From Patescibacteria group bacterium (GTDB lineage Bacteria; Patescibacteriota; Patescibacteriia; Patescibacteriales; JBAZCA01): a DNA stretch of 64,000 nucleotides. The DNA lies in NCBI GenBank assembly GCA_041671125.1, contig JBAZCA010000003.1:64689-128688 (forward strand). Reading direction: 5' to 3'. A model generated the notes under the pieces. It did not search any database and was not told the origin of the DNA. It saw only the letters and a program-made list of their open reading frames with translations. Positions 607 through 48,993 of this stretch are shown in pieces; position 1 is the first letter of the stretch; the number at the start of each line of letters is the position of its first letter. Made by a program: the position numbers and the translations under genes.

Positions 607-1671
607 ATGAAAAAAATACCTTTAATTCTAAACAAACGGCAGGAAAATATTTTAGATCTTCTTTCCGGCGGGAAGCCGCTTAAAATCTCCGGGATAATTT
701 CGGGGTTAAAGACCGCTTATTCCGGAACGTCAAAAATTACGATTAACCGGGACTTAAAAACTCTCATTGCGTCCGGTTATGTAATTAAAAAAGGCAAAGC
801 CAGAGCCACGGTTTACGAGTTCTCTTCCTCTTATAATCTTCTCCGTTCCGTTGAAGTTAAAAAATATTTCAGCGTTCCGGCCGATAAAAGGGAGGCGAAA
901 GAAAAATTTGATTTCAATATTTTTTCCCTGCTTAAAAATATTTTTACCGGAGAAGAAGAAAAATATCTTTATTCGCTTAACGGCGAATACCGGGACAACC
1001 TGAAAAGAATTTCTCCGGCTATCGCGAAGAATGAGCTTGAAAGGCTGATTATTGAGTTAAGCTGGAAATCTTCGCGGATTGAAGGCAATACTTATTCGCT
1101 CCTTGAAACCGAGGTTCTGATAAAAGAAAAAAAAGAGGCCAAGGGGCATAACAAAGAAGAGGCGATTATGATATTAAACCATAAGGAAACTCTGGATTAT
1201 ATTATTAACAATAAAAAAATCTTCAATAATGTCTCAACCGCCAAAATAGAGGATATTCATTATCTCCTGACGAAAAACCTCGGGATAGCGAAAAATTTAA
1301 GAAAATCGGCCGTCGGAATTGTCGGTACAAAATACCGGCCGCTGGATAACCAGCATGAAATCCGCGAAGCCATGGGAAAAGCCTGCGGAGTAATAAACCG
1401 GGAAAAAAATCATTTTGCCAAAGCGCTCGTCTTGTCGCTTTTAATCGCCTATATCCAGCCGTTTGAAGACGGCAATAAGAGGACGAGCCGCCTGTCCGCT
1501 AATGCCGTCCTGTTAGCCAATAATATTTGTCTGCTTTCCTACCGAAACGTGGACGAAGTGGAATACAAAAAAGCCGTTATTTTGTTTTATGAACAAAACA
1601 ACCTGAGTTATTTTAAAAGGCTTTTTATTGAACAGTCTGAGTTCGCCGTAAAAAATTACTTTAAAGCCTGA
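607..1671 (+). CDS. Fic/DOC family protein with N-terminal winged-HTH-like region and a variant Fic motif
   Basis: Fic core motif region reads IQPFEDGNKRTSRL (canonical HxFx[DE]GN[GK]RxxR). The N-terminus NILDLLSGGKPLKISGIISGL is HTH-like. Confidence 0.8.
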   Translation: MKKIPLILNKRQENILDLLSGGKPLKISGIISGLKTAYSGTSKITINRDLKTLIASGYVIKKGKARATVYEFSSSYNLLRSVEVKKYFSVPADKREAKEKFDFNIFSLLKNIFTGEEEKYLYSLNGEYRDNLKRISPAIAKNELERLIIELSWKSSRIEGNTYSLLETEVLIKEKKEAKGHNKEEAIMILNHKETLDYIINNKKIFNNVSTAKIEDIHYLLTKNLGIAKNLRKSAVGIVGTKYRPLDNQHEIREAMGKACGVINREKNHFAKALVLSLLIAYIQPFEDGNKRTSRLSANAVLLANNICLLSYRNVDEVEYKKAVILFYEQNNLSYFKRLFIEQSEFAVKNYFKA

Positions 1672-3383
1672 GAGGCAAAAATTCGCTTCACCATATACGT
1701 CTTATTCAACCTATATCCGAGCTTCCGGTAATACCCTCTCGCTCCGATTCCGGAAATAATCATCATTTTTTTAAAACCATTTTCCCGGGCGATTTTTTCC
1801 GCCTCGGCTAAAAGCAGTTTACCAAGGCCTGAATGCTGAACCCGGCCCGCTTTCCCAACCGGCGCCAACTCGCCGTAAACATGCAGTTCTCTTATAATCG
1901 CGGGATTGTCAGATAATAATCCATACTTCTTGTTAAGTCGGGTTGTAAGTTGCGAGTTGTGAGATATGGAAATATTGTTATGAGTTGCGAGTTGTGAGAT
2001 ATGAGTTATGAGATATGAGTTATGAGACAGCCTTAACCTACAAAACCCGTATAACACCTTTTTATCTTTGGACTCAACACTAATAAAATACTCCTCTCCA
2101 TCCGAAGCCTGATAACTCTTAATTCTTAATTCGTAATTTTTAATTCTTAATTCCTTCGGCTCTCGGCATCTTATGCATCGGCATTCCGCGCCCGAATCGG
2201 CCATCACCTGCCTTAAGTTAGTAATCTTATTGCCGGCCATAATTGACTCGCCCGGAATATCGCGGATCAATCTTATTATCCGGACGTATTCGGGCACGGC
2301 CTTTTTACAGTCTATTATCAGCTGGCGCAAAACCTTATCCCCATACGGCTTATATTTTCCGGCTTTCCACCACCGATAAAGCAAACTGCCGCGGGTAACG
2401 ACAGTCGGATAGAATTTAATCTGGTCCGGCTGGAACCGCGAATCATTAAACAGCGTTTTAAACATGACTAAATCTTTTTTGGCGGTCGCTCCGGGCAGGC
2501 CGGGCATGAGATGATAAGTCACTTTAAAACCAAAATCTTTTAATAACTTTGTCGCCTTAATGATCGCCGCTACGCCATGCCCGCGCCTGTTTAACTTCAG
2601 GATTTTATCGTCAATCGCCTGAATGCCTAATTCCACCCTCGTGCATCCGAGCTCGCGCATTTCCCATAATTCTTTTTCATCAATATAGTCCGGCCGGGTT
2701 TCAAGGGTCAGGCCGATAATTTTATACTTCGCTTTTTCGTTTTTCTTTTGCTCATTCAGCATCGTCATCCTGAGCGTAGCGAAGGATCTCGAGTTAGCGC
2801 GCTCAATGCGGGATTCTTCCCCGCCGAATCGGCGAGTCAGAATGACGGCAGAAGTATATTCATTCGCCGCCCGAAAGCACTCTTTTACGAACCAATATTT
2901 ATACTTCTCCGGCAGAACCGACCAGGTTCCGCCAATAACAATCAGTTCAATTTTCGTCGGCTCGTGCCCGTTCGCTTCTAACGCTCTAAGCCTCAGCTGA
3001 ACCTGCAAGTAAGGATTATAGTTACAGCGAATCGCCCGCATTACTGCCGGTTCATTGGAGAGATAACTCTGCGGGACGTCTTTTTCCGTCGGGCAATAGG
3101 CGCATTTGCCCGGGCAGGCGTAAGGCATGGTAAGAACCGCCACCGGAGCGATACCCGAGAGAGTCCGGACTTCGCGCTTACGGAGCAGACGGCGCAGGCT
3201 GGCGGACAAACCGGATTTACCGGCGCCGTATTCCTTTAAAATGTCGGAATTTTTTAACATGGCCAGATTATTTTTCCTCGCGATAATTCTCTTAGCCGCC
3301 ATTAACTCTTTAGCCGAATTTATCGGCATTTTTATCAGTTCTTTTACTGCTGACCGGACTTTTTTCTCCGCTAGGTTTTCCAT
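1656..3383 (-). CDS. elp3: Elp3-like radical SAM / GNAT acetyltransferase (tRNA U34 cm5 modification family)
   Basis: Radical SAM cluster CPGKCAYCP, ELGIQ and IRELHVYG motifs, and a C-terminal GNAT segment QHSGLGKLLLAEAE...GYYRKLGY. The 575 aa include three repeat-derived inserts. Confidence 0.85.
   Translation of the reverse strand: MENLAEKKVRSAVKELIKMPINSAKELMAAKRIIARKNNLAMLKNSDILKEYGAGKSGLSASLRRLLRKREVRTLSGIAPVAVLTMPYACPGKCAYCPTEKDVPQSYLSNEPAVMRAIRCNYNPYLQVQLRLRALEANGHEPTKIELIVIGGTWSVLPEKYKYWFVKECFRAANEYTSAVILTRRFGGEESRIERANSRSFATLRMTMLNEQKKNEKAKYKIIGLTLETRPDYIDEKELWEMRELGCTRVELGIQAIDDKILKLNRRGHGVAAIIKATKLLKDFGFKVTYHLMPGLPGATAKKDLVMFKTLFNDSRFQPDQIKFYPTVVTRGSLLYRWWKAGKYKPYGDKVLRQLIIDCKKAVPEYVRIIRLIRDIPGESIMAGNKITNLRQVMADSGAECRCIRCREPKELRIKNYELRIKSYQASDGEEYFISVESKDKKVLYGFCRLRLSHNSYLITHISQLATHNNISISHNSQLTTRLNKKYGLLSDNPAIIRELHVYGELAPVGKAGRVQHSGLGKLLLAEAEKIARENGFKKMMIISGIGARGYYRKLGYRLNKTYMVKRIFASQALK
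1941..2028. repeat. Low-complexity tandem repeats inside the elp3 coding sequence
   Basis: agttgcgagttgtgagatatg occurs at 1948-1968 and 1983-2003. agatatgagttatg occurs twice in tandem at 1997-2024. Minus-strand translation is SHNSYLITHISQLATHNNISISHNSQLTT. Confidence 0.85.
2116..2154. repeat. Low-complexity repeat (ttaattc/ttaattcgtaat type) inside elp3
   Basis: Sequence ctcttaattcttaattcgtaatttttaattcttaattcc, translating to ELRIKNYELRIKSY. It resembles the intergenic aattacaaatt / cgtaaatt repeats elsewhere in the window. Confidence 0.7.
2764..2846. repeat. Palindromic repeat family B copy (GTCATCCTGAG...CTCAGAATGAC) lying in frame inside elp3
   Basis: Its termini and inner GAAGGATCT / GGATTCTTC arms match the copies at 39689-39767, 43402-43491 and 61867-61955. 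The ORF is uninterrupted across it. Confidence 0.85.
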
Positions 3384-6889: not shown

Positions 6890-7204
6890 ATGGAAAAATT
6901 AAACTGCTGGGAACTTTTAAAATGCGGCCGCGAACCGGGCGGATTAAAAGTCCACGAACTCGGTTATTGCCCGGTTCCACAATCAGGCGTCGGGAGCGGG
7001 ATAAACGGCGGAAAATACCGGGGACGAATTTGCTGGTCTGTTGCCGGAACTTTTTGCCTCGGAGAAGTCCAGGGTACTTTCGCTAAAAAACGAAAAACCT
7101 GCGCCCTTTGCCCTCATTATTTATTGGTACAGGATGAGGAAGGGGAAGCTTTTACAAAACTTTTACCTGGTCAGTCTCTGCCGGAACAGAACCCGGAAAA
7201 ATAA
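6890..7204 (+). CDS. Small cysteine-rich protein with two CW motifs (two-CW-domain-like)
   Basis: MEKLNCWELLKCGREPGG...CP...ICWSVAGTFC...CALCP. Contains 7 Cys and two Cys-Trp dipeptides. Followed by a terminator. Confidence 0.6.
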   Translation: MEKLNCWELLKCGREPGGLKVHELGYCPVPQSGVGSGINGGKYRGRICWSVAGTFCLGEVQGTFAKKRKTCALCPHYLLVQDEEGEAFTKLLPGQSLPEQNPEK

Positions 7205-7227
7205 ATTAATTTGTGGCAATTATAAAA

Positions 7228-7254
7228 ACAGTCTCATCCCGGAGACTGTTTTTT
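7228..7254 (+). terminator. Rho-independent terminator
   Basis: Stem acagtctc/gagactgt, loop atcccg, followed by a T-run. Confidence 0.8.
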
Positions 7255-7294
7255 AAACACAAAATCCAAAATTCGGCAATCGTAAATTTCTATG

Positions 7295-7368
7295 TGGCTG
7301 GGGAGAGGCTCGAACTCTCGACCTTGGCGTTATGAGTGCCACGCTCTAACCAGCTGAGCTACCCAGCC
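7295..7368 (-). tRNA. tRNA with CAT anticodon (elongator Met or Ile2; not initiator-like)
   Basis: The reverse complement GGCTGGGTAGCTCAGCTGGTTAGAGCGTGGCACTCATAACGCCAAGGTCGAGAGTTCGAGCCTCTCCCCAGCCA folds as a cloverleaf. G1-C72 is paired. Confidence 0.85.
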
Positions 7369-7455
7369 ATCTTAAATTGCCAATTTACAACTTACAATTT
7401 TCAAATTTTTTTCTTTCATTTGGCAATCGTAAATTGACAATCGTCAATCTCTATG

Positions 7456-7527
7456 TGCCCCTGCCAGGATTTGAACCCAGGACCCGACGTCCGAAGCGTC
7501 GTGTGATATCCATTTCACTACAGGGGC
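7456..7527 (-). tRNA. tRNA-Arg (TCG)
   Basis: Reverse complement is GCCCCTGTAGTGAAATGGATATCACACGACGCTTCGGACGTCGGGTCCTGGGTTCAAATCCTGGCAGGGGCA. Anticodon loop CTTCGGA. Confidence 0.85.
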
Positions 7528-7553
7528 ATAACAGCCAAGTACTCCCTGCCTGC

Positions 7554-7573
7554 CCTGCCTGCCGGCAGGCAGG
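7554..7573. repeat. Perfect 20-bp GC-rich palindrome cctgcctgccggcaggcagg (related to family A core)
   Basis: Read directly. It shares CCTGCCTGCCGGC with the repeats at 480-559 and 10917-10990. Confidence 0.8.
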
Positions 7574-7586
7574 CGGCCAAGGCAGG

Positions 7587-7608
7587 TATCCATTTGAGCT
7601 ACGGGCGC
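7587..7608 (-). pseudogene. 5' fragment of a tRNA (acceptor strand + D-arm/loop, Arg-like), truncated at the D-loop by a GC-rich repeat
   Basis: The reverse complement GCGCCCGTAGCTCAAATGGATA is a canonical tRNA 5' end. No matching D-stem 3' strand, anticodon arm or T arm follows. Confidence 0.6.
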
Positions 7609-7762
7609 AACTCCGGCATTTTTAAATAGTCCCGAGCGCTCGGGACTATTATGATATTAGAACAAAATATCCGATTTAGTCAAATTTTAGAATCCCAAAT
7701 ATCACCAATCTTGAGCGGATATTTAGCCATATCCGCTTTCTTCTAAAAAAATTCGCGAGCGC

Positions 7763-8047
7763 TTAAATTTTACCTTTTAACGCGTCTTTTAAAGTCTTGC
7801 CGGTTTTAAATTTAGCTACCGTCACTTCGGGAATCTGGATCCTTTCGCTCGGTTTCTGCGGATTGACGCCGCCGCGCGAATGGCGCTTTCTCGGGATAAA
7901 AGTCCCGAAACCGGCGATCCGGACTTCGTTGCCGGCTTTGAGTTCGCTGATAATTACTCTGACTAACGCCTCAAGCATGGCTTCGGCGTCTTTTCTCGTA
8001 GACGGCGCTTCGGCCGCGATCTTCTCTATTAGCTGGGCTTTATTCAT
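7763..8047 (-). CDS. hup: HU family DNA-binding protein
   Basis: 94 aa. MNKAQLIEKIA...GFGTF...R.GRNP-like arm (RHSRGGVNPQKPSERIQIP). Confidence 0.9.
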   Translation of the reverse strand: MNKAQLIEKIAAEAPSTRKDAEAMLEALVRVIISELKAGNEVRIAGFGTFIPRKRHSRGGVNPQKPSERIQIPEVTVAKFKTGKTLKDALKGKI

Positions 8048-8144
8048 AACGCGTAACCCATAACGCGTAACCCATAACGATAACGATTATCAAGAAAGTC
8101 ATCCAAGATTCGTTATGCGTTACGCGTTTAACGTTATGCGGTAT
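8045..8144. repeat. Long imperfect hairpin built from short tandem motifs (ataacgcgtaaccc / cgttatgcgttacgcg)
   Basis: The left arm 8045-8085 is largely complementary to the right arm 8111-8144. It fills the ymdB stop to hup start gap. Confidence 0.75.
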
Positions 8145-8156
8145 AATTTTAAATTA

Positions 8157-8963
8157 TTATTTTATTTCTATAAACTCTCGTATTCTTTTAATTGTTTTCG
8201 CTTTGCCGGTCTTTTCGTCTATCGCGACGATCACTCCGCTTAAAATGGCGTCCCCTTTTTCCGGAATCACGTGGCTTCTTTTTATCTGGTCAAGATAAGT
8301 TTTAAGGATGTCTTCCTTTTCCACCCCGAGCGACCCCTCTCTAAAGCCGGTCATGCCCGCGTCGGTAAGGTAAGCGGTTCCTGCCGGAGTGATTTCTTCG
8401 TCCGCCGTCTGGATGTGGGTATGGGTGCCGATAAGGGCGCTCGCTTTTCCGTCAACGTAATATTTCATCGCCACTTTCTCCGAGGTAGTCTCGGCGTGCA
8501 TATCAATAATAATAGCAGATAACTTTTTTACCCGCAAGCTAGGATTAGCAAAAATCCTGTCAATTTCCCGGAAAGGACAGTCAAAATCTTTTTTCATAAA
8601 AACCCGGCCAATCAGGTTAATAAGAAGAACCCGAAATTTTCCTTTCTCAATAATCGCGTAACCCCGACCCGGCGCCAAAGGCGGCCAATTAGCCGGCCGA
8701 AGGATCGGGAGATCACCGCCATACACGTCATCAAGACTTTTTACCCGGTCAAAGGCATGGTCGCCGTTGGTAAAATAATCAACGCCCGCGGAAATAAGTT
8801 CTTCCAAAGTTTTTCTTGAAACGCCTTTGCCATGGGCGACATTATCGGCGTTGGCGATTATGATATCAACTTTGTGCTGTTTTTTTATTTTCGGCAAAAG
8901 AATCCGAACCGCCTCGCGGCCGATTTTCCCGCTCACATCGCCGATGAAAAAAACTTTTAACAT
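8157..8963 (-). CDS. ymdB: YmdB-like metallophosphoesterase (TIGR00282 family)
   Basis: MLKVFFIGDVSGKIGREAV...NGDHAFD...GTHTHIQTADE. Conserved position downstream of rny. Confidence 0.85.
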   Translation of the reverse strand: MLKVFFIGDVSGKIGREAVRILLPKIKKQHKVDIIIANADNVAHGKGVSRKTLEELISAGVDYFTNGDHAFDRVKSLDDVYGGDLPILRPANWPPLAPGRGYAIIEKGKFRVLLINLIGRVFMKKDFDCPFREIDRIFANPSLRVKKLSAIIIDMHAETTSEKVAMKYYVDGKASALIGTHTHIQTADEEITPAGTAYLTDAGMTGFREGSLGVEKEDILKTYLDQIKRSHVIPEKGDAILSGVIVAIDEKTGKAKTIKRIREFIEIK

Positions 8964-8977
8964 AATTTAAGTCACGA

Positions 8978-9046
8978 AGTCTTTGAGTCGGGGAAGTCAA
9001 GAAGTCTAAAGACTTTTCTGACTTGGGACTCTTAAACTCAAAGACT
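8978..9046. repeat. Long imperfect hairpin (agtctttgagt...actcaaagact) between rny stop and ymdB start
   Basis: Outer 11-bp perfect stem agtctttgagt/actcaaagact plus inner aagtcaagaagtc/gacttttctgactt pairing. Confidence 0.75.
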
Positions 9047-9047
9047 A

Positions 9048-10562
9048 TTATCGCGCGTATTCAATCACCCGCATTTCCCGTATAACATTCACTTTTATTT
9101 CTCCCGGGTATTTAAGCTCTTCTTCAATTTTTCTGGCGACGTTCCGGGCGAGATTATAGGCTTCAACGTCGTTCACGGTTTCCGGGGTAACGAAGATCCG
9201 GACCTCGCGTCCGGCCTGGATGGCGTAAACTTTTTCCACCCCCGGGAAAGAGGCCGCGATCCGTTCCAGCTCCTCAAGCCGCTGTAGATACCGCTCGTAG
9301 GTATCGCTCCGGGCGCCCGGCCGGCTGGCTGAAATCGCGTCAGCCACTTTTACGATTACCGCGATAAGACCTTTCGGCCGGTCATCATGGTGGGTTTCAA
9401 TCGGGTCAATTAATTCCTGGGGCAGGTTAAATTTTCTCGCGATATCGCGCCCGATTTCCGGGTGGGTGCCTTTAACTTCATGGTCAACGGCTTTGCCGAT
9501 ATCATGCAAAAGTCCGCTCTTCTTCGCCAAAGTTACGTCCGCCCCTAATTCTTCGGCGAGCAAAGCGGATAAATGCGCCACTTCAACCGAATGGTGCAGG
9601 GCGTTCTGTCCGTAGCTGGTCCGGTATTTTAACCGACCGAGAATCTGCGTTAGTTTAGGGTCCAGTCCGGCGACGCCGACGTCAAACGTGGCCGCTTCTC
9701 CGGCTTTCTTTATATCAATCGCGAGCTCCCTTTTTGACTCCTCAATCGCGTCTTCAATCTTGGTCGGATGAATCCGGCCGTCAAGGATGAGCTTGTCCAG
9801 AGTTTTCTTCGCGATGTGCCTTCTAATCGGCGAAAATCCGGAAATGGTAATGGCGTTCGGCGTATCGTCAACGATAATTTCGGTACCGGTAAGTTTTTCA
9901 ATGGTTTTTATGTTCCTGCCTTCGCGGCCGATAATCCGGCCTTTCATTTCGTCGCTTGGGAGGTCAACGACCGTAGTGGTCACTTCCGGGGTGTAAGTGG
10001 AAACAAGCCTTTGCATGCTCTCGGCCATTAAATTCCTCGCCCGCTCTTCCCAGACCTCGGTGGACTCGCATTCCAGCTTATGGATACGAACCATTAAATC
10101 TTCTCTGGTCTGTTCTTCAACTTTTTTAAAGAGTTCTTCCCGGGCCGCGTCTTTGTCCATGCCGGCGATTTCCTCAAGCTTCTTCATCTGCTCAACTTTA
10201 ATCTCGCCGACTTTAGCTTTTATTTCCTCTACCCGGCTCACTTTGTCGTAAAGGGACTGCTGTTTTTCCTGCAACTCCAAAAGTTTCTGCGAAAAAACGT
10301 TTTCCCGTTTTTCCAGCCGCGATTGCACGCCCTTAATTTCCTGGCGGCGATGCTCTTCGTCCCTTTTCGCGTCTTCAATAATCTTTAACGCTTTGTCCTG
10401 GGCTTTTAAAAGCACTTCGGTGTGCTTTGATTTTGCTTCGTTTAAAATCTTTTCAGCTTTATCTTCGGCTCCTTTAACCCTTTTGGCGGTCTGTCTTTTG
10501 TTCGTGTAAAAACCGGCGAAAAAACCGGCCACCGCCAGTATCGCCGCTATCAAATATTCCAT
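9048..10562 (-). CDS. rny: Ribonuclease Y
   Basis: N-terminal TM helix, coiled coil, KH domain (GRIIGREGRNI) and HD domain (LLHDIGKA). Confidence 0.9.
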   Translation of the reverse strand: MEYLIAAILAVAGFFAGFYTNKRQTAKRVKGAEDKAEKILNEAKSKHTEVLLKAQDKALKIIEDAKRDEEHRRQEIKGVQSRLEKRENVFSQKLLELQEKQQSLYDKVSRVEEIKAKVGEIKVEQMKKLEEIAGMDKDAAREELFKKVEEQTREDLMVRIHKLECESTEVWEERARNLMAESMQRLVSTYTPEVTTTVVDLPSDEMKGRIIGREGRNIKTIEKLTGTEIIVDDTPNAITISGFSPIRRHIAKKTLDKLILDGRIHPTKIEDAIEESKRELAIDIKKAGEAATFDVGVAGLDPKLTQILGRLKYRTSYGQNALHHSVEVAHLSALLAEELGADVTLAKKSGLLHDIGKAVDHEVKGTHPEIGRDIARKFNLPQELIDPIETHHDDRPKGLIAVIVKVADAISASRPGARSDTYERYLQRLEELERIAASFPGVEKVYAIQAGREVRIFVTPETVNDVEAYNLARNVARKIEEELKYPGEIKVNVIREMRVIEYAR

Positions 10563-10661
10563 AGAATCTTAATTCTGTTTTGAGAGGTTTTATTTTTTGA
10601 AACGCGGATCCACTCGTGCGATTCAATATTATAGAGAGAAAATTTTGAGAATTATCCAAAC

Positions 10662-10835
10662 TTAAATCAGGCTGGTTTTCACTTCCTTTTTAAAAGAGTC
10701 GGGGCTAAAAATAGCCAATGCTTTTAATTTTGTCCCGGTTTTAACTGTCCGGCCGTTTTTTTTACCAGTCAGCCGGGCGTTAACATTGCCCGCTGAATAA
10801 CCTGAAACCGCGTTGATATTCTCAAAAAAATTCAT
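10662..10835 (-). CDS. Hypothetical small protein (57 aa), not in the supplied ORF track
   Basis: ATG to TAA frame read by hand: MNFFENINAVSGYSAGNVNARLTGKKNGRTVKTGTKLKALAIFSPDSFKKEVKTSLI. Weak RBS and no recognisable family. Confidence 0.3.
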   Translation of the reverse strand: MNFFENINAVSGYSAGNVNARLTGKKNGRTVKTGTKLKALAIFSPDSFKKEVKTSLI

Positions 10836-10916
10836 AGCATTTCCGAAAACTTCCTCTAATAACAGACATTTTTATTAATTACTGTATTTAAGCTACCATA
10901 TCGCCTTACTTTTGAC

Positions 10917-11050
10917 AAGTTAATTTGCGTGCGAGCAAACCTGCCTGCCGGCCCGCTTCGCCGGAGCGAAAGCGAGGCGAGCAGGCAGGTTATCCCGAAC
11001 CCGCCGAATCGGCGGGCGGGGATCTCTCGTGCACGCAAATTAATTTGACT
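10917..11050. repeat. GC-rich palindromic repeat family A, full copy with terminal inverted repeats
   Basis: The left end aagttaatttgcgtgcgag is inverted at the right end ctcgtgcacgcaaattaatttgactt. The core 10921-10990 matches the reverse complement of 480-548. An internal hairpin cccgccgaatcggcggg is present. Confidence 0.8.
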
Positions 11051-11129
11051 TACCCCGGAATTTCCCGTAAACTTAAAGAAATTATCAAAGAAAGATGAAT
11101 TTAATTATGCTTATGATCACCCTAATATT

Positions 11130-13094
11130 ATGAATATATCCGAACTGGCCAGAAGATTAAGAATCAATCCGGTAGAGTTAAGGGAAAAACTTCCTCAGCT
11201 CGGTTTTGATATTGGTCAAAAAGCCATAAAAATTGATGACCGCGCGGCAAACAAAATCATCCAGTCCTGGCCGTCGCTTTTAAGGCGGCTGAGGGAAAAT
11301 TCATCCGTAACCGGCGAACGGCAGGAGCGGGCGCAAAACGAAGAAAAGAAAAAACTGCGATTGCCGGGTCATATTACGGTTCGCGATTTTGCCGAACTGG
11401 CCGGACTACCCGTCAGCCGGGTGCTGGCTCAACTCATGAAAAGCGGAATTTTCATCTCTCTGAATGAAGAAATTGATTATGATACCGCCGCCATCATCGG
11501 CTCGGATCTCGGGCTGGAAATTGAGAAAGGTGAAGAAGAGGAAAAAGAAACCTTAAACGAAAAAGTGTCGGTTGACGACGTGATGAAGTCGGAAACAGCC
11601 GAAAATTTAAAACCCCGGCCGCCGGTAATCGTAGTCATGGGTCATGTTGATCACGGAAAAACAAAGCTTCTGGACGCCATCCGCCGGACTAACGTCGTGG
11701 AAAAGGAAGCCGGAGGCATCACCCAGCACATCGGCGCCTATCAGGTAGAACGCCGAAACCGCTTTATCTCTTTTATTGACACCCCCGGCCATGAAGCCTT
11801 TACGGCCATGCGGAGCCGGGGCGCTAAAGTCGCTGATATCGCCATCCTGGTCGTCGCCGCTGATGACGGGGTCATGCCGCAGACAACCGAAGCTTTCCAG
11901 ATTATTAAGGCCGCCGGAACGCCTTTTGTCGTGGCTATTAACAAAATTGACAAACCTGACGCCGATATTAATAAGACCAAGCAGGAACTCTCAACCAAAT
12001 TAAATATCACGCCCGAAGACTGGGGAGGAAAAACCGTTACTGTTCCAGTCTCAGCCAAAGACGGAACCGGAATTGAAGAACTTCTGGATATTATTCTCCT
12101 TACCGCCGACCTGGACGCGGAAAAAATCAAAGCTAATCCCGGCGCTCCGGCTTTAGGCACGATTATTGAATCCCACATTGACAAAGGCGAAGGCCCGGTC
12201 GCGACGATTTTAATCCAAAACGGAACCTTAAAAATCGGCGACGCCTTAATACGGGACGGCATAATGTTCGGCAAAGTCCGGGCGTTAAAAAACTATCTCG
12301 GCGAAAACGTGAGCGCGGCCGCTCCTTCCACTCCGGTAAAAATTATCGGTTTAAAAATCGCCCCGGAAGTAGGGGACGTTTTAGCGGTCGGGGTCGGCAG
12401 GCGGGTGGATATGCGCAGTTTAAGAATGCCAAAACGAACCAGAATTGAAAAGGAAAAAGTAAGCGAAGGCGCCGAAACGCAAAAAACTATCAATATAATC
12501 ATCAAAAGCGACGTTTTAGGGTCGGCTGAAGCCATTGACGAATCCTTGGAAAAAATTTCCAACCCCGAAGTTAAAATCGTTACGATCACCAAAGGCCTTG
12601 GGAATATTTCCGAATCCGATATAACCCGGGCCTCGGCGACCAACGCGCAGATTATCGGCTTTAACGTAAAAGTGTCGTCCGGGCTGGAAGAGCTGGCGCG
12701 GACAAAAAACGTCAAAATTACCCTCTACAGCATTATCTATAACCTGATTAACGACGTAAAATCGCAGATGGAAGACCTTTTTGAACCTGAAATCCGCCGG
12801 ACTGACCTCGGAAAATTAAAAGTTTTGGCTTCATTTAAAATTGAAAAAACTTATCAGGTCATCGGCGGAAAAGTCCTTTCCGGAAAAATTGAAAAAGGCG
12901 CGTTAATTGAAGTTATTCGCGGTGATGAAATGAAAACCAAAGGAAAACTGGCCAGCTTGCAAATCCAAAAGCAGGAAGTGCCGGATTGCTCTGAAGGCCA
13001 GGAATGCGGAATTAAATTTGAAGGCGAGCCGGTAATTGAACCCGGCGACATTTTACAGTTTTACAAAGAAGAAAAAATAAAGAAGAAATTTTAA
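11130..13094 (+). CDS. infB: Translation initiation factor IF-2
   Basis: GTPase motifs GHVDHGKT, DTPGH and NKID, with IF-2 C-terminal domains. Confidence 0.95.
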   Translation: MNISELARRLRINPVELREKLPQLGFDIGQKAIKIDDRAANKIIQSWPSLLRRLRENSSVTGERQERAQNEEKKKLRLPGHITVRDFAELAGLPVSRVLAQLMKSGIFISLNEEIDYDTAAIIGSDLGLEIEKGEEEEKETLNEKVSVDDVMKSETAENLKPRPPVIVVMGHVDHGKTKLLDAIRRTNVVEKEAGGITQHIGAYQVERRNRFISFIDTPGHEAFTAMRSRGAKVADIAILVVAADDGVMPQTTEAFQIIKAAGTPFVVAINKIDKPDADINKTKQELSTKLNITPEDWGGKTVTVPVSAKDGTGIEELLDIILLTADLDAEKIKANPGAPALGTIIESHIDKGEGPVATILIQNGTLKIGDALIRDGIMFGKVRALKNYLGENVSAAAPSTPVKIIGLKIAPEVGDVLAVGVGRRVDMRSLRMPKRTRIEKEKVSEGAETQKTINIIIKSDVLGSAEAIDESLEKISNPEVKIVTITKGLGNISESDITRASATNAQIIGFNVKVSSGLEELARTKNVKITLYSIIYNLINDVKSQMEDLFEPEIRRTDLGKLKVLASFKIEKTYQVIGGKVLSGKIEKGALIEVIRGDEMKTKGKLASLQIQKQEVPDCSEGQECGIKFEGEPVIEPGDILQFYKEEKIKKKF

Positions 13095-13123
13095 TTGCAG
13101 CTTAAACATCGCGGGGATAAAAA

Positions 13124-13150
13124 CACACCATCAAAACGGTGCGTTTTTTT
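13124..13150 (+). terminator. Rho-independent terminator after infB
   Basis: Stem cacacc/ggtgcg (one mismatch) followed by T7. Confidence 0.6.
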
Positions 13151-13170
13151 ATTCTTGCCGTCGGCGATTT

Positions 13171-14349
13171 TCAGTCCCGCGCTTTCCTTAACGCCAAAGT
13201 AAAAAAGAAAAGTGAAATGATTCCGATTATGGTCCCGAATAAAAAAGTCGCGCCCGGATTTACGCGGCTCCAGAGTCCTCCGGCAATCAATCCGGCCGGC
13301 AGGGCCGCCAGACCGGTAAAAGTGTGAAATGTCCCGAGAGCCGTGCCTTTTGTTTCGGCCGGCGACAGGTCAGCGACTAAAGCCCTCTGCGCCCCGTCAA
13401 TCAAGGCAAAAAATATGCCAAAAAGAATGAATGAAATTATGGTATAAACAACGCCGCTAAAAAGGAAGAGTCCGAAAGATAAGACGCTGAACATGGCATA
13501 ACCGGTAAGAATTACCGGCTTTCGGCCGAACTTATCCGAGAGCGACCCGGCTTTCATGGAAAGAAGCGTGTACGCGAGGTAAAATAAGGCGTAAAGCATA
13601 ATCACCTGCTCGTTATTTAATCCATCCCCCTTGGCCCGGAGCATTAAAAACGCGTAGTTATAATTACCCAAAGTAAAAATCGTGGAAATCAAAATAAATA
13701 TTTTCAATTCTTTGGTCAGCGCGCCGAATCCGACTCTCAAAGAAATTTTTTTCTTTGTCGCTTCATACCGCTCCGGCTCGCGGACAAAAATTATTACCGC
13801 GACGGAAATTATTCCCGGAATAATAGCCAGCTTAAATAAATTAACAAAACCAAAAAGCGGCAGAAGAAGAAACGCGAGCGCCGCCCCGCCGATTGACCCA
13901 AGCCCGTCCATGGCCCGATGAAAACCGTAAGCCTTGCCCATGGTAGCCTGGTTATTTGATTCGGCGATAATTGCGTCCCGCGGCGCGTCCCGCAAACCTT
14001 TTCCCACCCGGTCGGCGATTCTTATGCCGAGCACGGCGAACCAGGATCCGGCGTAAGCCAGAACCGGCTTCATCACCGCGGATAAAGCGTAGCCAAAAAA
14101 AACAAACGGCTTTCTTTTTCTGATTTTATCCGACCAATAACCGGAAACTACTTTTAGCAAAGAGGCGGTTGCTTCGGCCGCGCCTTCAACCGCTCCGACC
14201 GCGATTGCCCCGCCCCCGAGAACGCTCGTTATATATAAAGGCAGTAAAGGAAAAACCATCTGCCCGCTTAAGTCGGTTAAAAGGCTTACGACTCCGAGGA
14301 TTATCACGTTCCGCGAAATCCCAGAGAATATTTTTTTAAATCCGTCCAT
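13171..14349 (-). CDS. MFS transporter
   Basis: About 12 predicted TM helices and an MFS-like loop (DRVGKGLRDAPRDA). Confidence 0.8.
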   Translation of the reverse strand: MDGFKKIFSGISRNVIILGVVSLLTDLSGQMVFPLLPLYITSVLGGGAIAVGAVEGAAEATASLLKVVSGYWSDKIRKRKPFVFFGYALSAVMKPVLAYAGSWFAVLGIRIADRVGKGLRDAPRDAIIAESNNQATMGKAYGFHRAMDGLGSIGGAALAFLLLPLFGFVNLFKLAIIPGIISVAVIIFVREPERYEATKKKISLRVGFGALTKELKIFILISTIFTLGNYNYAFLMLRAKGDGLNNEQVIMLYALFYLAYTLLSMKAGSLSDKFGRKPVILTGYAMFSVLSFGLFLFSGVVYTIISFILFGIFFALIDGAQRALVADLSPAETKGTALGTFHTFTGLAALPAGLIAGGLWSRVNPGATFLFGTIIGIISLFFFTLALRKARD

Positions 14350-14421
14350 ATTTATTAATTTTCTTATCTCATCATTAAACTTTCATTAATTTACCTGAAA
14401 TCAAAATCTCGCGCAAGCAAC

Positions 14422-14446
14422 AAAAAATCGCCCTTCCGGGACGACT
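14422..14446 (-). terminator. Rho-independent terminator closing the tRNA-Leu/tRNA-Val transcription unit
   Basis: The minus strand reads gtcgtcccggaagggcga followed by TTTTTT. Confidence 0.6.
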
Positions 14447-14451
14447 TTTTA

Positions 14452-14512
14452 TGTGGACAATATAGGACTCGCCCGGCATCCGCCGGGCGGGGAGCGAATG
14501 CTCCCCGAACCT
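14452..14512 (-). pseudogene. Partial duplicate of the tRNA-Val 3' end with a ~36-bp double GC hairpin inserted in the T-loop
   Basis: tgtggacaatataggactcg ... aacct matches the tRNA-Val 3' end tggtggacaatataggactcgaacct. It is interrupted by cccggcatccgccgggcggggagcgaatgctccccg. Confidence 0.7.
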
Positions 14513-14532
14513 TAACAATAAGCCTCACATAC

Positions 14533-14610
14533 TGGTGGACAATATAGGACTCGAACCTATAACCCCCTCGGTGTAAACGAGGTGCTCTAGCCAATTGAGC
14601 TAATTGTCCC
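14533..14610 (-). tRNA. tRNA-Val (TAC), CCA encoded
   Basis: Reverse complement is GGGACAATTAGCTCAATTGGCTAGAGCACCTCGTTTACACCGAGGGGGTTATAGGTTCGAGTCCTATATTGTCCACCA. Confidence 0.9.
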
Positions 14611-14614
14611 GGCC

Positions 14615-14701
14615 TGGTGGGCGAGAGAGGACTCGAACCTCCACAGCCTTGCGGCCACAAGCCCCTCAAGCTTGCGTGTCTACCGGTTTCACCACTCGCC
14701 C
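14615..14701 (-). tRNA. tRNA-Leu (GAG), long variable arm, CCA encoded
   Basis: Reverse complement is GGGCGAGTGGTGAAACCGGTAGACACGCAAGCTTGAGGGGCTTGTGGCCGCAAGGCTGTGGAGGTTCGAGTCCTCTCTCGCCCACCA. Confidence 0.9.
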
Positions 14702-14716
14702 GAAAGAATCCCGGCC

Positions 14717-15079
14717 TTAGCCGATTTTCTTTTCTCTAAGCTTTTTCTTATAACCGCGCTTTAAGAAGTAAAGTTTGGCCCGGTTAACTTTGGCTTGCCG
14801 CTTAATTTCAACCTTGGTAATAGTCGGCAGGTTGATGGGAAAAATTTTTTCCACTTCCACACCGTCGGAAATTTTCCGGATAGTAACGGTTCCTCCGGCT
14901 TCCTTACCGCGGCGGCAGGCAATCACCAGACCTTCAAAATACTGAACTCTTTCTTTTTCCTCCCCTTTAATGGAGAGCTCTTTAATTTTTTGGTGCACCC
15001 GGACGGTCATGCCCGGCGCTAAATCTTTCAGGCCGGCGATTTTCTTCGCGTCGGCTGAGGCGGTTTTTACGGTTGTCAT
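14717..15079 (-). CDS. rplS: 50S ribosomal protein L19
   Basis: GMTVRVHQKIKE...ERVQYFEGLVIA...TIRKIS.GVEVEKIFP....I..VEI. Confidence 0.9.
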   Translation of the reverse strand: MTTVKTASADAKKIAGLKDLAPGMTVRVHQKIKELSIKGEEKERVQYFEGLVIACRRGKEAGGTVTIRKISDGVEVEKIFPINLPTITKVEIKRQAKVNRAKLYFLKRGYKKKLREKKIG

Positions 15080-15192
15080 AGTAAATTTATCAAAAATGCT
15101 ATTAATAATTTATCCGGCTAATCAAAAATAATCCCGTCCCGCCCCCGCGCTTTGGCGCGAAGCCGCGAAACCGGATATTAAAAACTAGCTTG

Positions 15193-15220
15193 ATTATACT
15201 GCTTTTCGGGAATTAGTCAA
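15193..15220 (-). promoter_or_regulatory. Sigma-70-type promoter for rplS (TTGACT-16 nt-TATAAT on minus strand)
   Basis: -35 at 15215-15220 and -10 at 15193-15198, read on the reverse complement. A GC-rich structured leader follows. Confidence 0.55.
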
Positions 15221-15456
15221 CAGTCCGGGCTAATTTTTTCCAAAAATTTCGCGAAAGATGGGCTTATGTCCGGCTATTCCCGCTTTAACCATTAGCTATC
15301 CTCCAATACATCCTCCGGCAGACTTGATTTTACCCGGCTATCATGTTATCATTGGGATAATTAATTTAATTAATAATTAAATTCCTTCCTTTTCTTGGTT
15401 TTAGGGTAATTTTCGGGTAAATCCCGCCCAATTCTCGGAAAAACGGAAAATCCAGT

Positions 15457-15852
15457 ATGTTGGACAAAGATTCCAAGCAGAAAATCATTAATAAATTTAA
15501 GGTTCATGCCACTGATACCGGATCTTCACAGGTCCAGATAGCCATCCTTACTGAAGAGATAAAACGGCTTACCGACCATTTAAAATCGCACAAACATGAC
15601 CATTCCTCCCGCCGGGGACTTTTAAAAAAAGTCGGCGAAAGGCGGAAACTCTTAAAATATTTACAAAAAGAAAGCCAGGAAGCTTTTAACGAACTGGCTA
15701 AAAAACTAAAATTGAAAATCGCCAAAAAAATGATTGAGGACGAGGAAGAAGAAAGAAAGCGGCTGGAAGAAGAAATGGCGCCAAAAGCCGAAGCCGAGGA
15801 AGAAACCGTTACTGAAGAAGATACGACAGGTAAAAAAGAAGAAAAAGAATAA
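15457..15852 (+). CDS. rpsO: 30S ribosomal protein S15 with ~40-aa Glu/Lys-rich C-terminal extension
   Basis: S15 core TGSSQVQIAILTEEIKRLTDHLKSHKHDHSSRRGLLKKVGERRKLLKYL, followed by an EEEERKRLEEE...KKEEKE tail. Confidence 0.9.
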   Translation: MLDKDSKQKIINKFKVHATDTGSSQVQIAILTEEIKRLTDHLKSHKHDHSSRRGLLKKVGERRKLLKYLQKESQEAFNELAKKLKLKIAKKMIEDEEEERKRLEEEMAPKAEAEEETVTEEDTTGKKEEKE

Positions 15853-15898
15853 ATCTCAATCCTGCTCCGCGGCTATTCGCGGATTTGGAAGTTATTAC

Positions 15899-16417
15899 AT
15901 GAAAAAACATAAAGAACAACGAGTGGGAGTTTTGATTGACGTGGCCAACATGTACCACTCAGCCAAAAATCTCTACAAAAAGCGGGTTAATTTTGAAGAG
16001 ATATTAAAAGAAGGCGTGGCCGGCAGAAAATTAATCCGGGCCGTCGCTTACGTAATCCGGGCCGAAACCGAAGAGGAAACCCATTTTTTTGAAGCGCTCT
16101 CTCAGCAAGGTTTTGAGGTAAAAATGAAAGATTTACAAATTTTCGCCGGCGGCATAAAAAAAGCCGACTGGGACGTCGGCATAGCGATTGACGCGGTAAA
16201 GCTCGGAAATAAATTGGATGTAATAGTACTGGTTTCTGGCGACGGCGATTACGTGCCACTGGTCAATTACCTGCAAAACACCATGGGTTGCGTGGTTGAG
16301 GTTATGGCTTTCCGCCAGACGGCGTCATCAAAGCTCATAGAAGAAGCCGATGATTTTATCAACTTAAGCGAAGACAAAAAATTTTTGCTGTCCCAGGGCA
16401 ACCGATTTTTCAATTAG
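15899..16417 (+). CDS. NYN/LabA-like (PIN-like) domain protein
   Basis: VGVLIDVANMY...VLVSGDGDYVPLV is typical of the NYN/LabA family. Start chosen at the ATG at 15899 with GGAAG about 9 nt upstream. The upstream part of ORF 15734 is the out-of-frame shadow of the rpsO tail. Confidence 0.75.
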   Translation: MKKHKEQRVGVLIDVANMYHSAKNLYKKRVNFEEILKEGVAGRKLIRAVAYVIRAETEEETHFFEALSQQGFEVKMKDLQIFAGGIKKADWDVGIAIDAVKLGNKLDVIVLVSGDGDYVPLVNYLQNTMGCVVEVMAFRQTASSKLIEEADDFINLSEDKKFLLSQGNRFFN

Positions 16418-16498
16418 CCCTATATTTATTTAACGCTTAGCTGTCAGATACATAGTCTATGAGATATCACTCATGGCCTCTAATCTGTCGGCCAGGCA

Positions 16499-16563
16499 TA
16501 AAAATGCAAAATTAAAAAATCAAAATGCAAAATTTTAATTTTTGATTTTTACATTTTACATTA
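16499..16563. repeat. AT-rich imperfect hairpin of short tandem motifs (aaaatgcaaaatt / acattttacatt) just upstream of pnp
   Basis: Central stem aaaaatcaaaa/ttttgattttt, with flanking partially complementary repeats. Ends about 10 nt before the pnp ATG. Confidence 0.7.
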
Positions 16564-16572
16564 TCATAATTT

Positions 16573-21470: not shown

Positions 21471-21674
21471 ATAGTAATTTTAAGCCTCTCTTCTACTTAT
21501 CAGTTCCTTCTTTAGCATAGCCGGAACTTTACTCAAAATTTGACTAAATTGAAAATTCCTTAAATAAATGATATAATATACAGGTGTAAACACTCTGCTT
21601 CCAGTGCGCATAATCCTTTCTATAATATTTACTTCATCTTTCTTCATAAGGCGTTATGAGTTATGAGATAATTT

Positions 21675-30846: not shown

Positions 30847-31120
30847 GTAATAATAAATTCCAAAATCCAAATTACAAATTACAAATTACAAAAATTTGAA
30901 AAAAGAAAAGCTCTTTTTTTAGAGCTTTCTTTATTATAACAAAAAACCGCGGCTTGTCAATAATTTCGCTAAAATTGACGTAATATTTTACTTGTTAAAT
31001 TTACTAAGGTATAATAAAATCAATAAATTCAAACATTTAAAAATTTGGCGCTGTATAAAGTTTATATGGCATTTTAACGTAAAAACAGCCTGATAAATTT
31101 AATTCTGCCACGCTCTAACC

Positions 31121-39532: not shown

Positions 39533-39688
39533 AACACCCTCCTTGAACCCCTAAACATCTTCCGATGCCAAAGGTTCCGAAAAAAGAAAGATACACCTTG
39601 CCCAACAAAGCCAAAAACCCTAGCCCCTGCGGCTTTGTCAGGCGCTTCCAATGAACCACGCTGAATTATCGGCCAATCATTTTAAACC

Positions 39689-39767
39689 GTCATTCTGAGG
39701 GCAAAGCCCGAAGAATCTCGTCATAAGCGCGCTAATACTCGGGATTCTTCGCTTCGCTCAGAATGAC
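39689..39767. repeat. Palindromic repeat family B copy
   Basis: gtcattctgagggcaaagcccgaagaatctcg...cgggattcttcgcttcgctcagaatgac. Confidence 0.85.
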
Positions 39768-40003
39768 GGTAATTGAATCAGCCCATCATTCGGCGCGGCT
39801 ATTGTTTTCTCTATTTTAAAGAGCATTGGCGCGCAAAAAAACGCACTTTTTATATTAGCACGAAACCATAGTTCTGTCAATGGCTCATGCTTATTTTTAT
39901 TTTAATATTAGCAAAAAGGGCGAGAAGTAATCCCGCCCCTGAACATAAAATACATTACGTAAAACACAAACCGCAACATCAGTCTTTTTAAATCTTCTTC
40001 CTT

Positions 40004-42388: not shown

Positions 42389-42396
42389 AATAAAAA

Positions 42397-42437
42397 TCAA
42401 TGATCAATGATCAATGATCAATGATCAATGATCAATT
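42397..42437. repeat. Perfect heptamer tandem repeat (TCAATGA)x5 plus a partial unit
   Basis: Read directly. It begins 9 nt upstream of the ppsA start codon. Confidence 0.95.
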
Positions 42438-43011: not shown

Positions 43012-43193
43012 ATTGGTTTAGCTTATTTAATGAGTTAACTGACTGTATTAAGTATATCAGTTTTTTTATATTTATCAAGAGGAAAATTCCTGAAATATTC
43101 CTCCCGCGTTCCTTGACATTCAAGGCCAATTGGCCGAAAATAGAGGAATACTTGGAAAATCGTAAATTGGCAATTGTAAATTGTAAATTAAAT

Positions 43194-43278
43194 GGGCGAG
43201 TGGTGAAACTGGCAGACACGCATGCCTTAGGAGCATGTGGGGCAACCCGTGGAGGTTCAAGTCCTCTCTCGCCCACCA
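43194..43278 (+). tRNA. tRNA-Leu (TAG), CCA encoded
   Basis: GGGCGAGTGGTGAAACTGGCAGACACGCATGCCTTAGGAGCATGTGGGGCAACCCGTGGAGGTTCAAGTCCTCTCTCGCCCACCA. Confidence 0.9.
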
Positions 43279-43286
43279 ATAGAAAC

Positions 43287-43366
43287 AGACACATCCCGCC
43301 TCTGAAAGCGGGATGGGGGCAACCCGTGCCCCGCCCCGCATTTACGGGGCGGGATCTCGCCCACCA
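43287..43366 (+). pseudogene. Degenerate tandem copy of tRNA-Leu lacking the 5' acceptor strand; anticodon and T arms replaced by GC-rich hairpins
   Basis: It retains AGACAC, GGGGCAACCCGTG and CTCGCCCACCA blocks in tRNA-Leu order. The anticodon arm is replaced by catcccgc-ctctgaaa-gcgggatg. The T arm is replaced by cccgccccg-cattta-cggggcggg. Confidence 0.65.
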
Positions 43367-43401
43367 GAAAAGTTTGTAGATTATCCGACAACTCCTTTTT
43401 T

Positions 43402-43491
43402 GTCATCCTGAGCGGAACGAAGTGAAGCGAAGGATCTGCAACCTTGGCTAAATCCGCAGACGCAGATTCTTCGCCTTCGGCTCAGAATGAC
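43402..43491. repeat. Palindromic repeat family B copy
   Basis: gtcatcctgagcggaacgaagtgaagcgaaggatctgc...gcagattcttcgccttcggctcagaatgac. The flanks ttatccgacaactcc / (rc) are shared with the copy at 61867. Confidence 0.9.
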
Positions 43492-43605
43492 AATTGTTGC
43501 ACAGTCTGCATCCCGCTCATAAAAACAACTCTACTTGACATTCTTTTTTTCTTGTGTTAGTGTAGTAATACATTAATACAGACATGCCAACAATAAAACA
43601 GTTTT

Positions 43606-45284: not shown

Positions 45285-45338
45285 CGACATATCCTGTGAT
45301 ATCATCGCAGGGCGGCCTACAGACTTTTTAAGCGCCTG

Positions 45339-45375
45339 AGCGGGCAAGAACCACCACATTCTTGCCCGCTTTTTC
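45339..45375 (+). terminator. Rho-independent terminator after hisG
   Basis: 12-bp stem agcgggcaagaa/ttcttgcccgct followed by a T-run. Confidence 0.85.
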
Positions 45376-45861: not shown

Positions 45862-45938
<77 letters not shown>

Positions 45939-48972: not shown

Positions 48973-48993
48973 TTTTACATTCGCCTCCGGCTC

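Follow-up and report, generated by a model that had tools for sequence, protein, structure and literature searches.

A seven-base repeat underlies the intergenic hairpins of a Patescibacteria genome

Introduction

The stretch of DNA analysed here, referred to as the window (64,000 nucleotides, G000:C3:64689-128688), belongs to a genome of the Patescibacteria (candidate phyla radiation, CPR) of 1.19 Mb in 11 contigs, with about 45% G+C and a completeness score of 100%. Several gaps between its genes are filled by long imperfect hairpins that end close to start codons. In this work these hairpins are connected with tandem repeats of seven-base (heptamer) units, which occur throughout the genome, between genes as well as inside them, and which are gained, lost and replaced between species. 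The hairpins had first been noticed in a sequence-only reading of the window, in which processing sites, translational control structures and a repeat family were considered as possibilities.

The genes next to the hairpins had been named in that reading as rny, ymdB, hup, pnp and a penicillin-binding protein (PBP) gene, and Pfam confirmed these names:

7763-8047, minus strand: HU (hup)
8157-8963, minus strand: YmdB
9048-10562, minus strand: RNase Y (rny)
16573-18825, plus strand: PNPase (pnp)
21675-24281, plus strand: class-A PBP (PBP1-type)

The only RNA genes found in the window by Rfam and ARAGORN are eight tRNAs. Gene calls were our own crude ones, based on open reading frames (ORFs) and codon scores, and starts were set by the longest-ORF choice, so that distances to starts are approximate. 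The caller left 15853-16572 as intergenic; a 227-aa ORF lies inside (15734-16417, plus strand), which reduces the real spacer upstream of pnp to less than 720 nt. The closest named relatives of the YmdB protein are metagenome-assembled genomes (MAGs) labelled Patescibacteria, Parcubacteria or Paceibacterota, and 95% of the sampled words of window positions 7200-17000 were present in two groundwater metagenome runs from different studies. The genome under study is called G000 below, and a congener used for comparison G002.

Hairpins and tracts of the window

The sites considered in the window were folded as RNA, the folds being expressed as z-scores (for 8045-8144, against 200 dinucleotide shuffles), and searched with Tandem Repeats Finder (TRF):

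8045-8144, minus strand: gap-filling hairpin from ymdB to hup, with 35-nt arms, 80% complementary and 29 nt apart
8969-9047 (first given as 8978-9046), minus strand: gap-filling hairpin from rny to ymdB, z -3.8 on both strands
7369-7454, minus strand: hairpin in the spacer between tRNA-Arg(TCG) and tRNA-Met, z -6.6 on the transcribed strand
16498-16567, no strand assigned: inverted repeat just 5' of pnp, heptamer-periodic, with 35-nt arms, 77% complementary
62495-62557 (first given as 62505-62560), no strand assigned: CATAACC/GTTATGR element over the start of ORF 62540, with 12-14-nt arms
21651-21672, plus strand: GTTATGA tract of 2.1 copies before the PBP gene, no hairpin (z -1.4 sense, -0.7 antisense)
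30855-30892, no strand assigned: tandem (AAATTAC) of 5.4 copies upstream of tRNA-Glu, no hairpin
43152-43189 (also given as 43157-43189), no strand assigned: tandem (AAATTGT) of 4.7 copies directly upstream of tRNA-Leu(TAG), no hairpin
46305-46340, no strand assigned: short TTGACAATTGTCAA-type palindrome 3' of tRNA-Arg(CCT), z -2.0 to -2.6
42396-42436, minus strand: perfect tandem (ATCAATG) of 5.9 copies abutting the start of pyruvate phosphate dikinase (PPDK), TRF score 82 with 100% matches
48672-48715, no strand assigned: AATTGAT-type tract of period 7 and 14 (TRF), upstream of the gene at 47935-48666 (minus strand)

The hairpin between ymdB and hup starts 9 nt past the ymdB stop, and on the transcribed strand its 3' arm overlaps the hup start codon. 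The arms consist of CATAACG/CGTAACC-type heptamers, the 5' arm being made of 2.5 perfect copies of a 14-nt unit with two 7-nt subunits (TRF periods 14 and 7; lag-7 identity in the arm 0.63). Its Watson-Crick score is 37, and the predicted fold of the transcribed minus strand reaches -39.8 kcal/mol with z -5.5, the plus strand having z -6.1. The rny-to-ymdB hairpin has a perfect 11-nt outer stem and arms of AAGTC/GACTT-type motifs, its Watson-Crick-only score of 22 falling slightly under the threshold of 24 used for the genome-wide search described below. The arms of the tRNA spacer hairpin contain TTGTAAA/TTGACAA/CGTAAAT-type motifs, with a TRF period of 14 at 7420-7448. Before pnp, units of the types AAAATGC/AAAATTA and their complements follow each other with period 7 at 16501-16534, 16533-16557 and 16547-16562; the sense fold is not significant (z -0.9) and the antisense one has z -2.7. 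The element at 62495-62557 also gives a lower z on the antisense strand (-4.2) than on the sense strand (-1.7).

The sites had been described as sharing one architecture, that of a hairpin with arms of tandem motifs. Significant folds were indeed obtained at 8045-8144, 8978-9046 and 7369-7454, but those at 16499-16563 and 62505-62560 are weak or antisense-favoured, and at 21651-21672, 30858-30895 and 43155-43192 the tandem motifs are present without a hairpin. A shared architecture exists, but the sites are united by the repeat unit of 7 nt and not by the hairpin. Likewise, the elements each have a sequence of their own within the window, but sequence families recur genome-wide.

The seven-base period across the genome

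A tract detector found 126 period-7 tracts genome-wide and 0-5 for each of the periods 4-6 and 8-13, and TRF on the window gave a period of 7 or 14 in 12 of the 14 rows with at least three copies. In the 60 nt before starts, sequence identity peaks at lags 7, 14 and 21 (0.340, 0.320 and 0.309, against about 0.29 otherwise). This autocorrelation is confined to non-coding DNA, coding DNA having a lag-3 signal only.

The repeat units are 75% A+T and comprise 78 canonical units, mostly with an AATT core. The commonest are AATTCTT (21 tracts), AATTACG (18) and AATTATG (18), and CATAACN/NGTTATG forms a second unit class. There is no general orientation bias, stop codons of the units lying on the sense strand in 42 tracts and on the antisense strand in 43, and ATG in 17 and 10, of 67. 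CATAAC arms invariably lie on the 5' side of their GTTATG partners; as inverted repeats are identical on both strands, however, this order is no proof of selection on the RNA strand. No special link to tRNA genes was seen: a tract lies at most 45 nt upstream of 6 of 48 tRNAs, downstream of 6 of 48, and upstream of 75 of 845 protein genes. One heptamer tract, AAACCCT/AAACCTT at G000:C3:189584-189613, has the repeat unit of plant-type telomeres, presumably by coincidence.

Beyond this genome, sampled stretches of relatives across the order contain 0-15 period-7 tracts per 100 kb, the congener has 63 in all (and 10 of period 8), and MAGs from other studies carry the same kind of tract; none was found in 312 kb from other phyla. 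The pattern AATT(N3)x5 has 56 matches in this genome, the next-highest counts among 301 sampled Patescibacteria genomes being 19, 10 and 10, and it occurs at least once in 68 of the 301. Mismatch repair has also to be considered here. MutS_V was not found in G000, even though the genome is scored as complete, and of the 301 genomes, 62 have MutS and 239 do not, the pattern being present in 5 of the former and 63 of the latter (odds ratio 0.25; p 0.002, with no control for kinship or base composition); 176 MutS-less genomes have no match.

The AATT core in strict 7-bp phase, with its 56 matches, would also suit a role at the level of DNA, in the form of 7-bp protein-binding arrays, cruciforms, outward promoters of the Correia kind, or contingency loci tuned by slippage. 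The failure to find MutS and a difference in unit number between G000 and G002 at the homologous site C5:97107 point in the same direction, as do promoter-like hexamer pairs in or at some arms (16542-16570, 7426-7397 and 8174-8146) and stem mismatches without strand asymmetry. Such a role is nonetheless judged improbable: there are 78 different units rather than one site, and the flanked genes are housekeeping ones (HU, YmdB, PNPase, PPDK, PBP1), not the surface genes typical of phase variation. Furthermore, main-strain contigs contain no length variants, which is weak evidence, and the promoter scan, with 22 found over 10 kb against 11.9 +/- 3.5 expected, is pattern-level only.

Architecture and placement of the intergenic hairpins

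Between genes, the tracts are often paired with an inverted copy. An inverted partner lies within 150 nt of 41-43 of the 87 intergenic tracts and a direct partner beside 1 of 87, and reversed or complemented controls for the inverted partner gave 0-4; among tracts inside ORFs, 5 of 39 have an inverted partner. A Watson-Crick-only search (score threshold 24) of 515 gaps of 30-220 nt returned 193 hairpins, of which 82 have heptamer-periodic arms; these 82 amount to 7.2 kb, or about 4.5% of the intergenic DNA. Heptamer hairpins were found in 73 of 414 co-directional gaps, 4 of 57 convergent gaps (p 0.054) and 5 of 44 divergent gaps (p 0.40), a preference for operons that is weaker per gap than the tract density per kb had suggested.

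The 73 co-directional hairpins are closely fitted to their gaps, the stem starting a median of 7 nt past the stop and ending a median of 6 nt before the start. The observation made in the window, that the hairpins end 0-10 nt from start codons, therefore extends to the genome, 71% of the 73 ending within 10 nt. It had further been noted that these starts lack a Shine-Dalgarno sequence; this is true, but it is a property of the whole genome, where an SD-like 4-mer precedes only 85 of 844 genes, with a flat profile. Across the genome, starts have a Kozak-like context, with a T at position -1 in 64% of genes, an A-rich stretch from -11 to -3 and a depletion of G. As to leaderless promoters, TANNNT from -12 is only weakly enriched, at 7-8% of genes against a background of 3-4%, and equally so in operon-internal genes.

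The absence of T-runs, from which it had been concluded that the hairpins are not ordinary terminators, holds for 63 of the 73. The mean stem G+C of the heptamer hairpins is 0.17-0.22, so that the G+C-rich stem followed by a T-run of intrinsic terminators is not what is found, and many of them separate genes of the same apparent operon. Stem-loops downstream of stops, in A+T-rich low-complexity DNA, might still be taken for unconventional terminators without a U-tract, or for artefacts of chance low complexity or of assembly. Against this stand the canonical G+C-rich terminators with T-runs that G000 also possesses, at 7225-7255 and in gaps of the convergent class, together with the low G+C of the heptamer stems and their position between rny, ymdB and hup and between tRNAs. 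Chance is excluded by the fold z-scores, the period counts and the partner counts. As regards assembly, two runs that belong to different studies yielded independent main-strain contigs across both window hairpins, with 0 differences, and the same kind of tract is present in MAGs of other studies. Terminators and artefacts are thus considered very improbable.

A more substantial alternative is that of functional RNA structures between cistrons, with selection on shape rather than sequence. The hairpins might be stems that separate cistrons and serve in stabilisation or in processing by RNase III or RNase Y, or, in a variant, might bring the stop beside the next start and so gate re-initiation in the absence of Shine-Dalgarno sites. 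The close fit between stop and start would be expected of such structures. Moreover, co-directional gaps with tracts fold better than their shuffles (mean z -3.2; 51% below -3), the hairpin form is common between genes and rare inside them (41/87 against 5/39), and the genes for RNase III, RNase Y and PNPase are all encoded in the genome. Other properties speak against it: two of the window sites fold better on the antisense strand, and the same repeats are also found next to tRNAs, in gaps of the divergent and convergent classes and, read in frame, inside ORFs. An excess of G-U pairs on the sense strand was not observed either (52 G-T against 61 A-C mismatches), a test with little power in which the control classes were likewise non-significant (79 against 62; 11 against 9).

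Turnover between species

The comparison with G002 is based on 1.16 Mb of rebuilt sequence, with 804 reciprocal best hits (mean amino-acid identity 82%) and 608 conserved gene adjacencies. Among the 64 co-directional gaps that hold a heptamer hairpin in G000, the corresponding gap of G002 is shorter than 30 nt in 22 cases, hairpin-less in 23, occupied by a hairpin of a different kind in 8 and by a heptamer hairpin in 11. The empty sites are spacers of 0-21 nt, which accounts for the close fit described above: an element inserted into so short a spacer fills the gap and abuts both codons. For selection on RNA shape, the 22 short gaps are a difficulty, since neighbouring genes in the congener work without the element.

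Where both species have an element, it is often not the same one. About 4 of the 11 co-occupied gaps are homologous. At C5:82038, identity is 88% and the lengths differ by 7 nt, and at C5:97107 the number of units differs. The contents of about 7 others belong to unrelated families, and in one of these the upstream terminator is conserved letter for letter and the adjacent hairpin has been replaced. The gap between rny and ymdB contains in G002 an unrelated 128-nt hairpin. Non-hairpin spacers are 86-91% identical between the two species. Similar replacements were seen in relatives from the same samples: in contigs of a co-occurring relative, 72 other letters replace 8050-8155 with the flanks still aligning, and at the pnp site there is either a 39-letter insert at 16533/16540 or 29 letters in place of 16504-16596.

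Sequence families and dispersal

Some of the palindromes recur as families. The best example (family B) is a near-perfect palindrome of about 130 nt with at least 8 full copies of 83-92% identity, sharp ends and unrelated flanks; terminal inverted repeats and dispersed copies, as in a miniature inverted-repeat transposable element (MITE), were found for this family only. The full element is absent from G002, which has fragments of 20-36 nt only. Together with the exclusivity of period 7, the recurring families and the same kind of tract in relatives, this dispersed palindrome bears out the suggestion that the hairpins belong to a repeat family.

The copies also allow compensatory changes to be looked for. 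The consensus stem of an alignment of 8 copies has 37 pairs; of the varied cells, about 21 are pair-breaking, 5 preserve the pair by a change on one side and 3 are compensatory. The covariation term is unfavourable (+1.45). Substitutions in the family therefore mostly break pairs, which argues against selection for an RNA shape.

Tracts inside genes

The heptamers are not restricted to spacers. Tracts inside ORFs number 48, and 37 of them fall in parts of the gene that align with the G002 orthologue; they are read in frame, giving peptides with a period of 7 aa, of the types NYELRIK, ITNYKLQ, IPNSKFQ and NRQSSIV. The G002 orthologue is gapped at the tract in 10 of the 38 cases examined; in other cases it contains a comparable peptide, or a longer insert resembling a translated G+C-rich palindrome. 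An ELP3-like radical-SAM/GNAT gene of the window (1656-3383, minus strand) contains two tracts, situated between the Radical_SAM_C and GNAT domains:

1977-2027, minus strand: heptamer tract, in frame, absent from G002 (gap fraction 0.94)
2113-2153, minus strand: second tract, in frame, with a ELRIKNYELRIK-type peptide, present in G002 too

Where the unit would give an in-frame TAA in this gene, the sequence has CAA.

Origin of the elements

The reading preferred here, to which we assign a probability of about 0.55, is that the hairpins are the palindromic members of a fast-turnover, slippage-born A+T-rich heptamer DNA, similar to foldback elements or MITEs, whose effects on RNA are incidental. 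Four steps can be proposed. Seven-base units would expand by replication slippage in a genome in which no MutS has been found, as suggested by the exclusivity of period 7 and by the copy-number differences between species. A tract would then, by some mechanism, gain an inverted copy and become a foldback, in line with the 41 inverted partners against 1 direct partner counted for the intergenic tracts. Some foldbacks would multiply to new sites in the manner of a MITE, as seen for the 130-nt family. Finally, purifying selection would spare the elements where they are tolerated, namely in intergenic spacers of 0-21 nt, tRNA spacers and stop-free in-frame positions; this confinement would be the reason why they fill gaps and abut stop and start codons. 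The elements would probably be co-transcribed with their genes and fold as long A-U-rich stems beside starts, and these stems may be substrates of RNase III or dampen initiation, as side effects and not as the reason for their existence.

Several results weigh against this reading. Slippage was not directly observed, and main-strain contigs have no length variants, although contigs drop rare variants. No target-site duplication was visible by eye in the 8 copies of family B or in 24 pairs of occupied and empty sites. Searches of the genome for Y1_Tnp (RAYT/IS200), DEDD_Tnp_IS110 and TnpB-type proteins gave no match, other transposase families lying outside the search; as a control, Y1_Tnp was matched in 6 of 14 named genomes. 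The only insertion sequence (IS) found, of the rve type (IS3/IS481-like, G000:C2:167388-168590), carries inverted ends of 40 nt that bear no relation to the heptamer elements, and no parent IS with matching ends was found among the families searched. As regards placement, the density of strict tracts per kb is 2-4 times higher in co-directional gaps than in the other two gap classes, and in long gaps the period-7 excess is 0.025 beside starts and 0.004 both beside stops and at mid-gap. In addition, gaps are co-occupied in the two species more often than in the background (11/64 against 15/455, odds ratio 6, p 8e-5), several of them by different families. For the gap between ymdB and hup, hairpins that all differ in sequence are predicted in 9 of 11 relatives from the order, in a comparison that included no shuffle control.

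The last two results would fit either permissive hot spots or selection for structure, and unrelated hairpins in the same gap of relatives are what functional intercistronic structures would predict. It is mainly because of them that this alternative, although unlikely, is retained with some weight. On balance we lean against selection on structure, since elements are missing from gaps of the congener, changes break pairs and no G-U excess was observed.

A further possibility, speculative and rather unlikely, is that Patescibacteria harbour a foldback class, built of 7-nt units and propagating with no recognisable transposase, and that operons without Shine-Dalgarno sequences have adopted it as their usual module between cistrons. 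Hairpins might serve as templates for DNA synthesis during its propagation, in a lineage that lacks mismatch repair. The stem would set the stop beside the next start, where a terminating ribosome would melt it and re-initiate, or else it would serve as an RNase III entry site that fixes the stoichiometry of the cistrons. This would account for the continued occupation of the same gaps by changing hairpins across the order.

Relation to known repeats

Repeats with one or another of these properties are known from several groups. The short tandemly repeated repetitive (STRR) sequences of cyanobacteria are tandem heptamers, as here, but with G+C-richer units, and to our knowledge they have not been described as hairpins. 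Repetitive extragenic palindromes (REP) and bacterial interspersed mosaic elements (BIME), associated with RAYT transposases, resemble the present elements in being intergenic palindromes with conserved positions and species-specific sequence; they were considered as candidates and rejected, the genome having no match to a Y1 transposase. The same architecture, inverted arms of short tandem units, is found in the foldback (FB) elements of Drosophila, which unlike those described here are eukaryotic, kilobase-sized and made of 10-31-bp units.

The closest case described is that of the TAACTGA direct repeats of marine Beggiatoaceae, Cyanobacteria and Bacteroidetes (MacGregor 2015, PMC4679880), which in Beggiatoaceae lie upstream of starts without Shine-Dalgarno sequences. 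Heptamers are the commonest long repeat class (Mrazek 2007, as cited in PMC4679880), and in G000 period 7 is likewise the most frequent. The common features are a 7-nt unit in tandem sets of 2-11 that are mostly intergenic, sets of which most end a few nt from SD-less starts and some lie in frame in ORFs, a patchy phylogenetic distribution, and polymerase slippage as the proposed origin (PMC4679880). The differences are also clear: G000 has 78 A+T-rich units and not one, contains no TAACTGA dimer (TAACTGATAACTGA), has some of its palindromes dispersed as families, and belongs to the Patescibacteria. Moreover, about half of its intergenic tracts form long inverted-pair hairpins, against 1 indirect repeat in 170 sets in Beggiatoa (PMC4679880).

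Among bacterial MITEs, the Correia elements (CREE) of Neisseria and the enterobacterial repetitive intergenic consensus (ERIC) elements are described as folding into RNA hairpins and as co-transcribed with genes, Correia elements being cut by RNase III or protected from it and being able to create promoters (PMC2649163, PMC10969869). The present elements resemble them in being short, non-coding, palindromic, dispersed in multiple copies, adjacent to genes and present or absent between close relatives. They differ by the lack of a visible target-site duplication, by arms that consist of 7-nt tandem units in many low-complexity families, and in that the searches revealed no cognate transposase.

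The tracts inside ORFs recall the Rickettsia palindromic elements (RPE), which are repeat DNA of reduced genomes, inserted in frame in unrelated housekeeping genes and translated (PMC10969869). In-frame insertion into conserved genes, absent from orthologues, was found here as well. The copies inside ORFs are mostly plain tandem heptamers giving 7-aa-period peptides, and not translated palindromes of about 150 bp as in RPE. The TIGR arrays (TIGR-Tas) of CPR bacteria, which have a repeat period of about 36 nt and an adjoining Tas gene with a Nop domain (PMC12045711), were rejected as candidates: the period here is 7, the elements are spread over about 100 gaps, and no Nop-domain match was found. 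In the literature searched, which left most subscription journals outside, no description of such repeats in Patescibacteria was found.

Significance

The genomes of CPR/Patescibacteria are regarded as extremely streamlined, yet about 4.5% of the intergenic DNA of this one is heptamer foldback DNA, which is subject to gain, loss and replacement among species of a single genus and also enters housekeeping proteins in frame. This affects gene calling, as start codons lie inside ATG-bearing repeats, and it bears on the reading of operon structure in uncultured organisms, on the strain typing of groundwater populations, and on the old open question of why seven bases are favoured in long bacterial repeats. 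If the hairpins did act on RNA, they would be one of the main layers of post-transcriptional control in a phylum where experimental genetics hardly exists.

Other repeats and features

A second class of repeats consists of G+C-rich palindromic elements, of the types GTCATCCTGAGCG..GGATC and CCTGCCTGCCGGCAGGCAGG, found in the window at the following positions, no strand being assigned:

376-606: G+C-rich palindromic element, inverted relative to 10836-11129
10836-11129: G+C-rich palindromic element
39533-40003: G+C-rich palindromic element
43012-43605: G+C-rich palindromic element
61829-61898: G+C-rich palindromic element

Elsewhere in the genome such palindromes are nested in the loops of A+T-rich heptamer hairpins (for instance at C4:106983-107134), and in G002 they appear to be translated inside ORFs. 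A tRNA remnant, called neither by ARAGORN nor by Rfam, lies at 7528-7612 (minus strand). It corresponds to the 5' portion of a tRNA that G002 has intact, is interrupted in G000 by a G+C-rich palindrome and runs straight into tRNA-Arg(TCG).

Finally, the region 45285-51577 looks like a replication origin, with DnaA at 49956-51302, DnaN at 51578-52720 and many flanking TTATCCACA-like boxes. Near this putative origin, at about 45.4-46.3 kb, there are four palindromes of about 26 nt, of the type TTATGTCCA..TGGACATAA.

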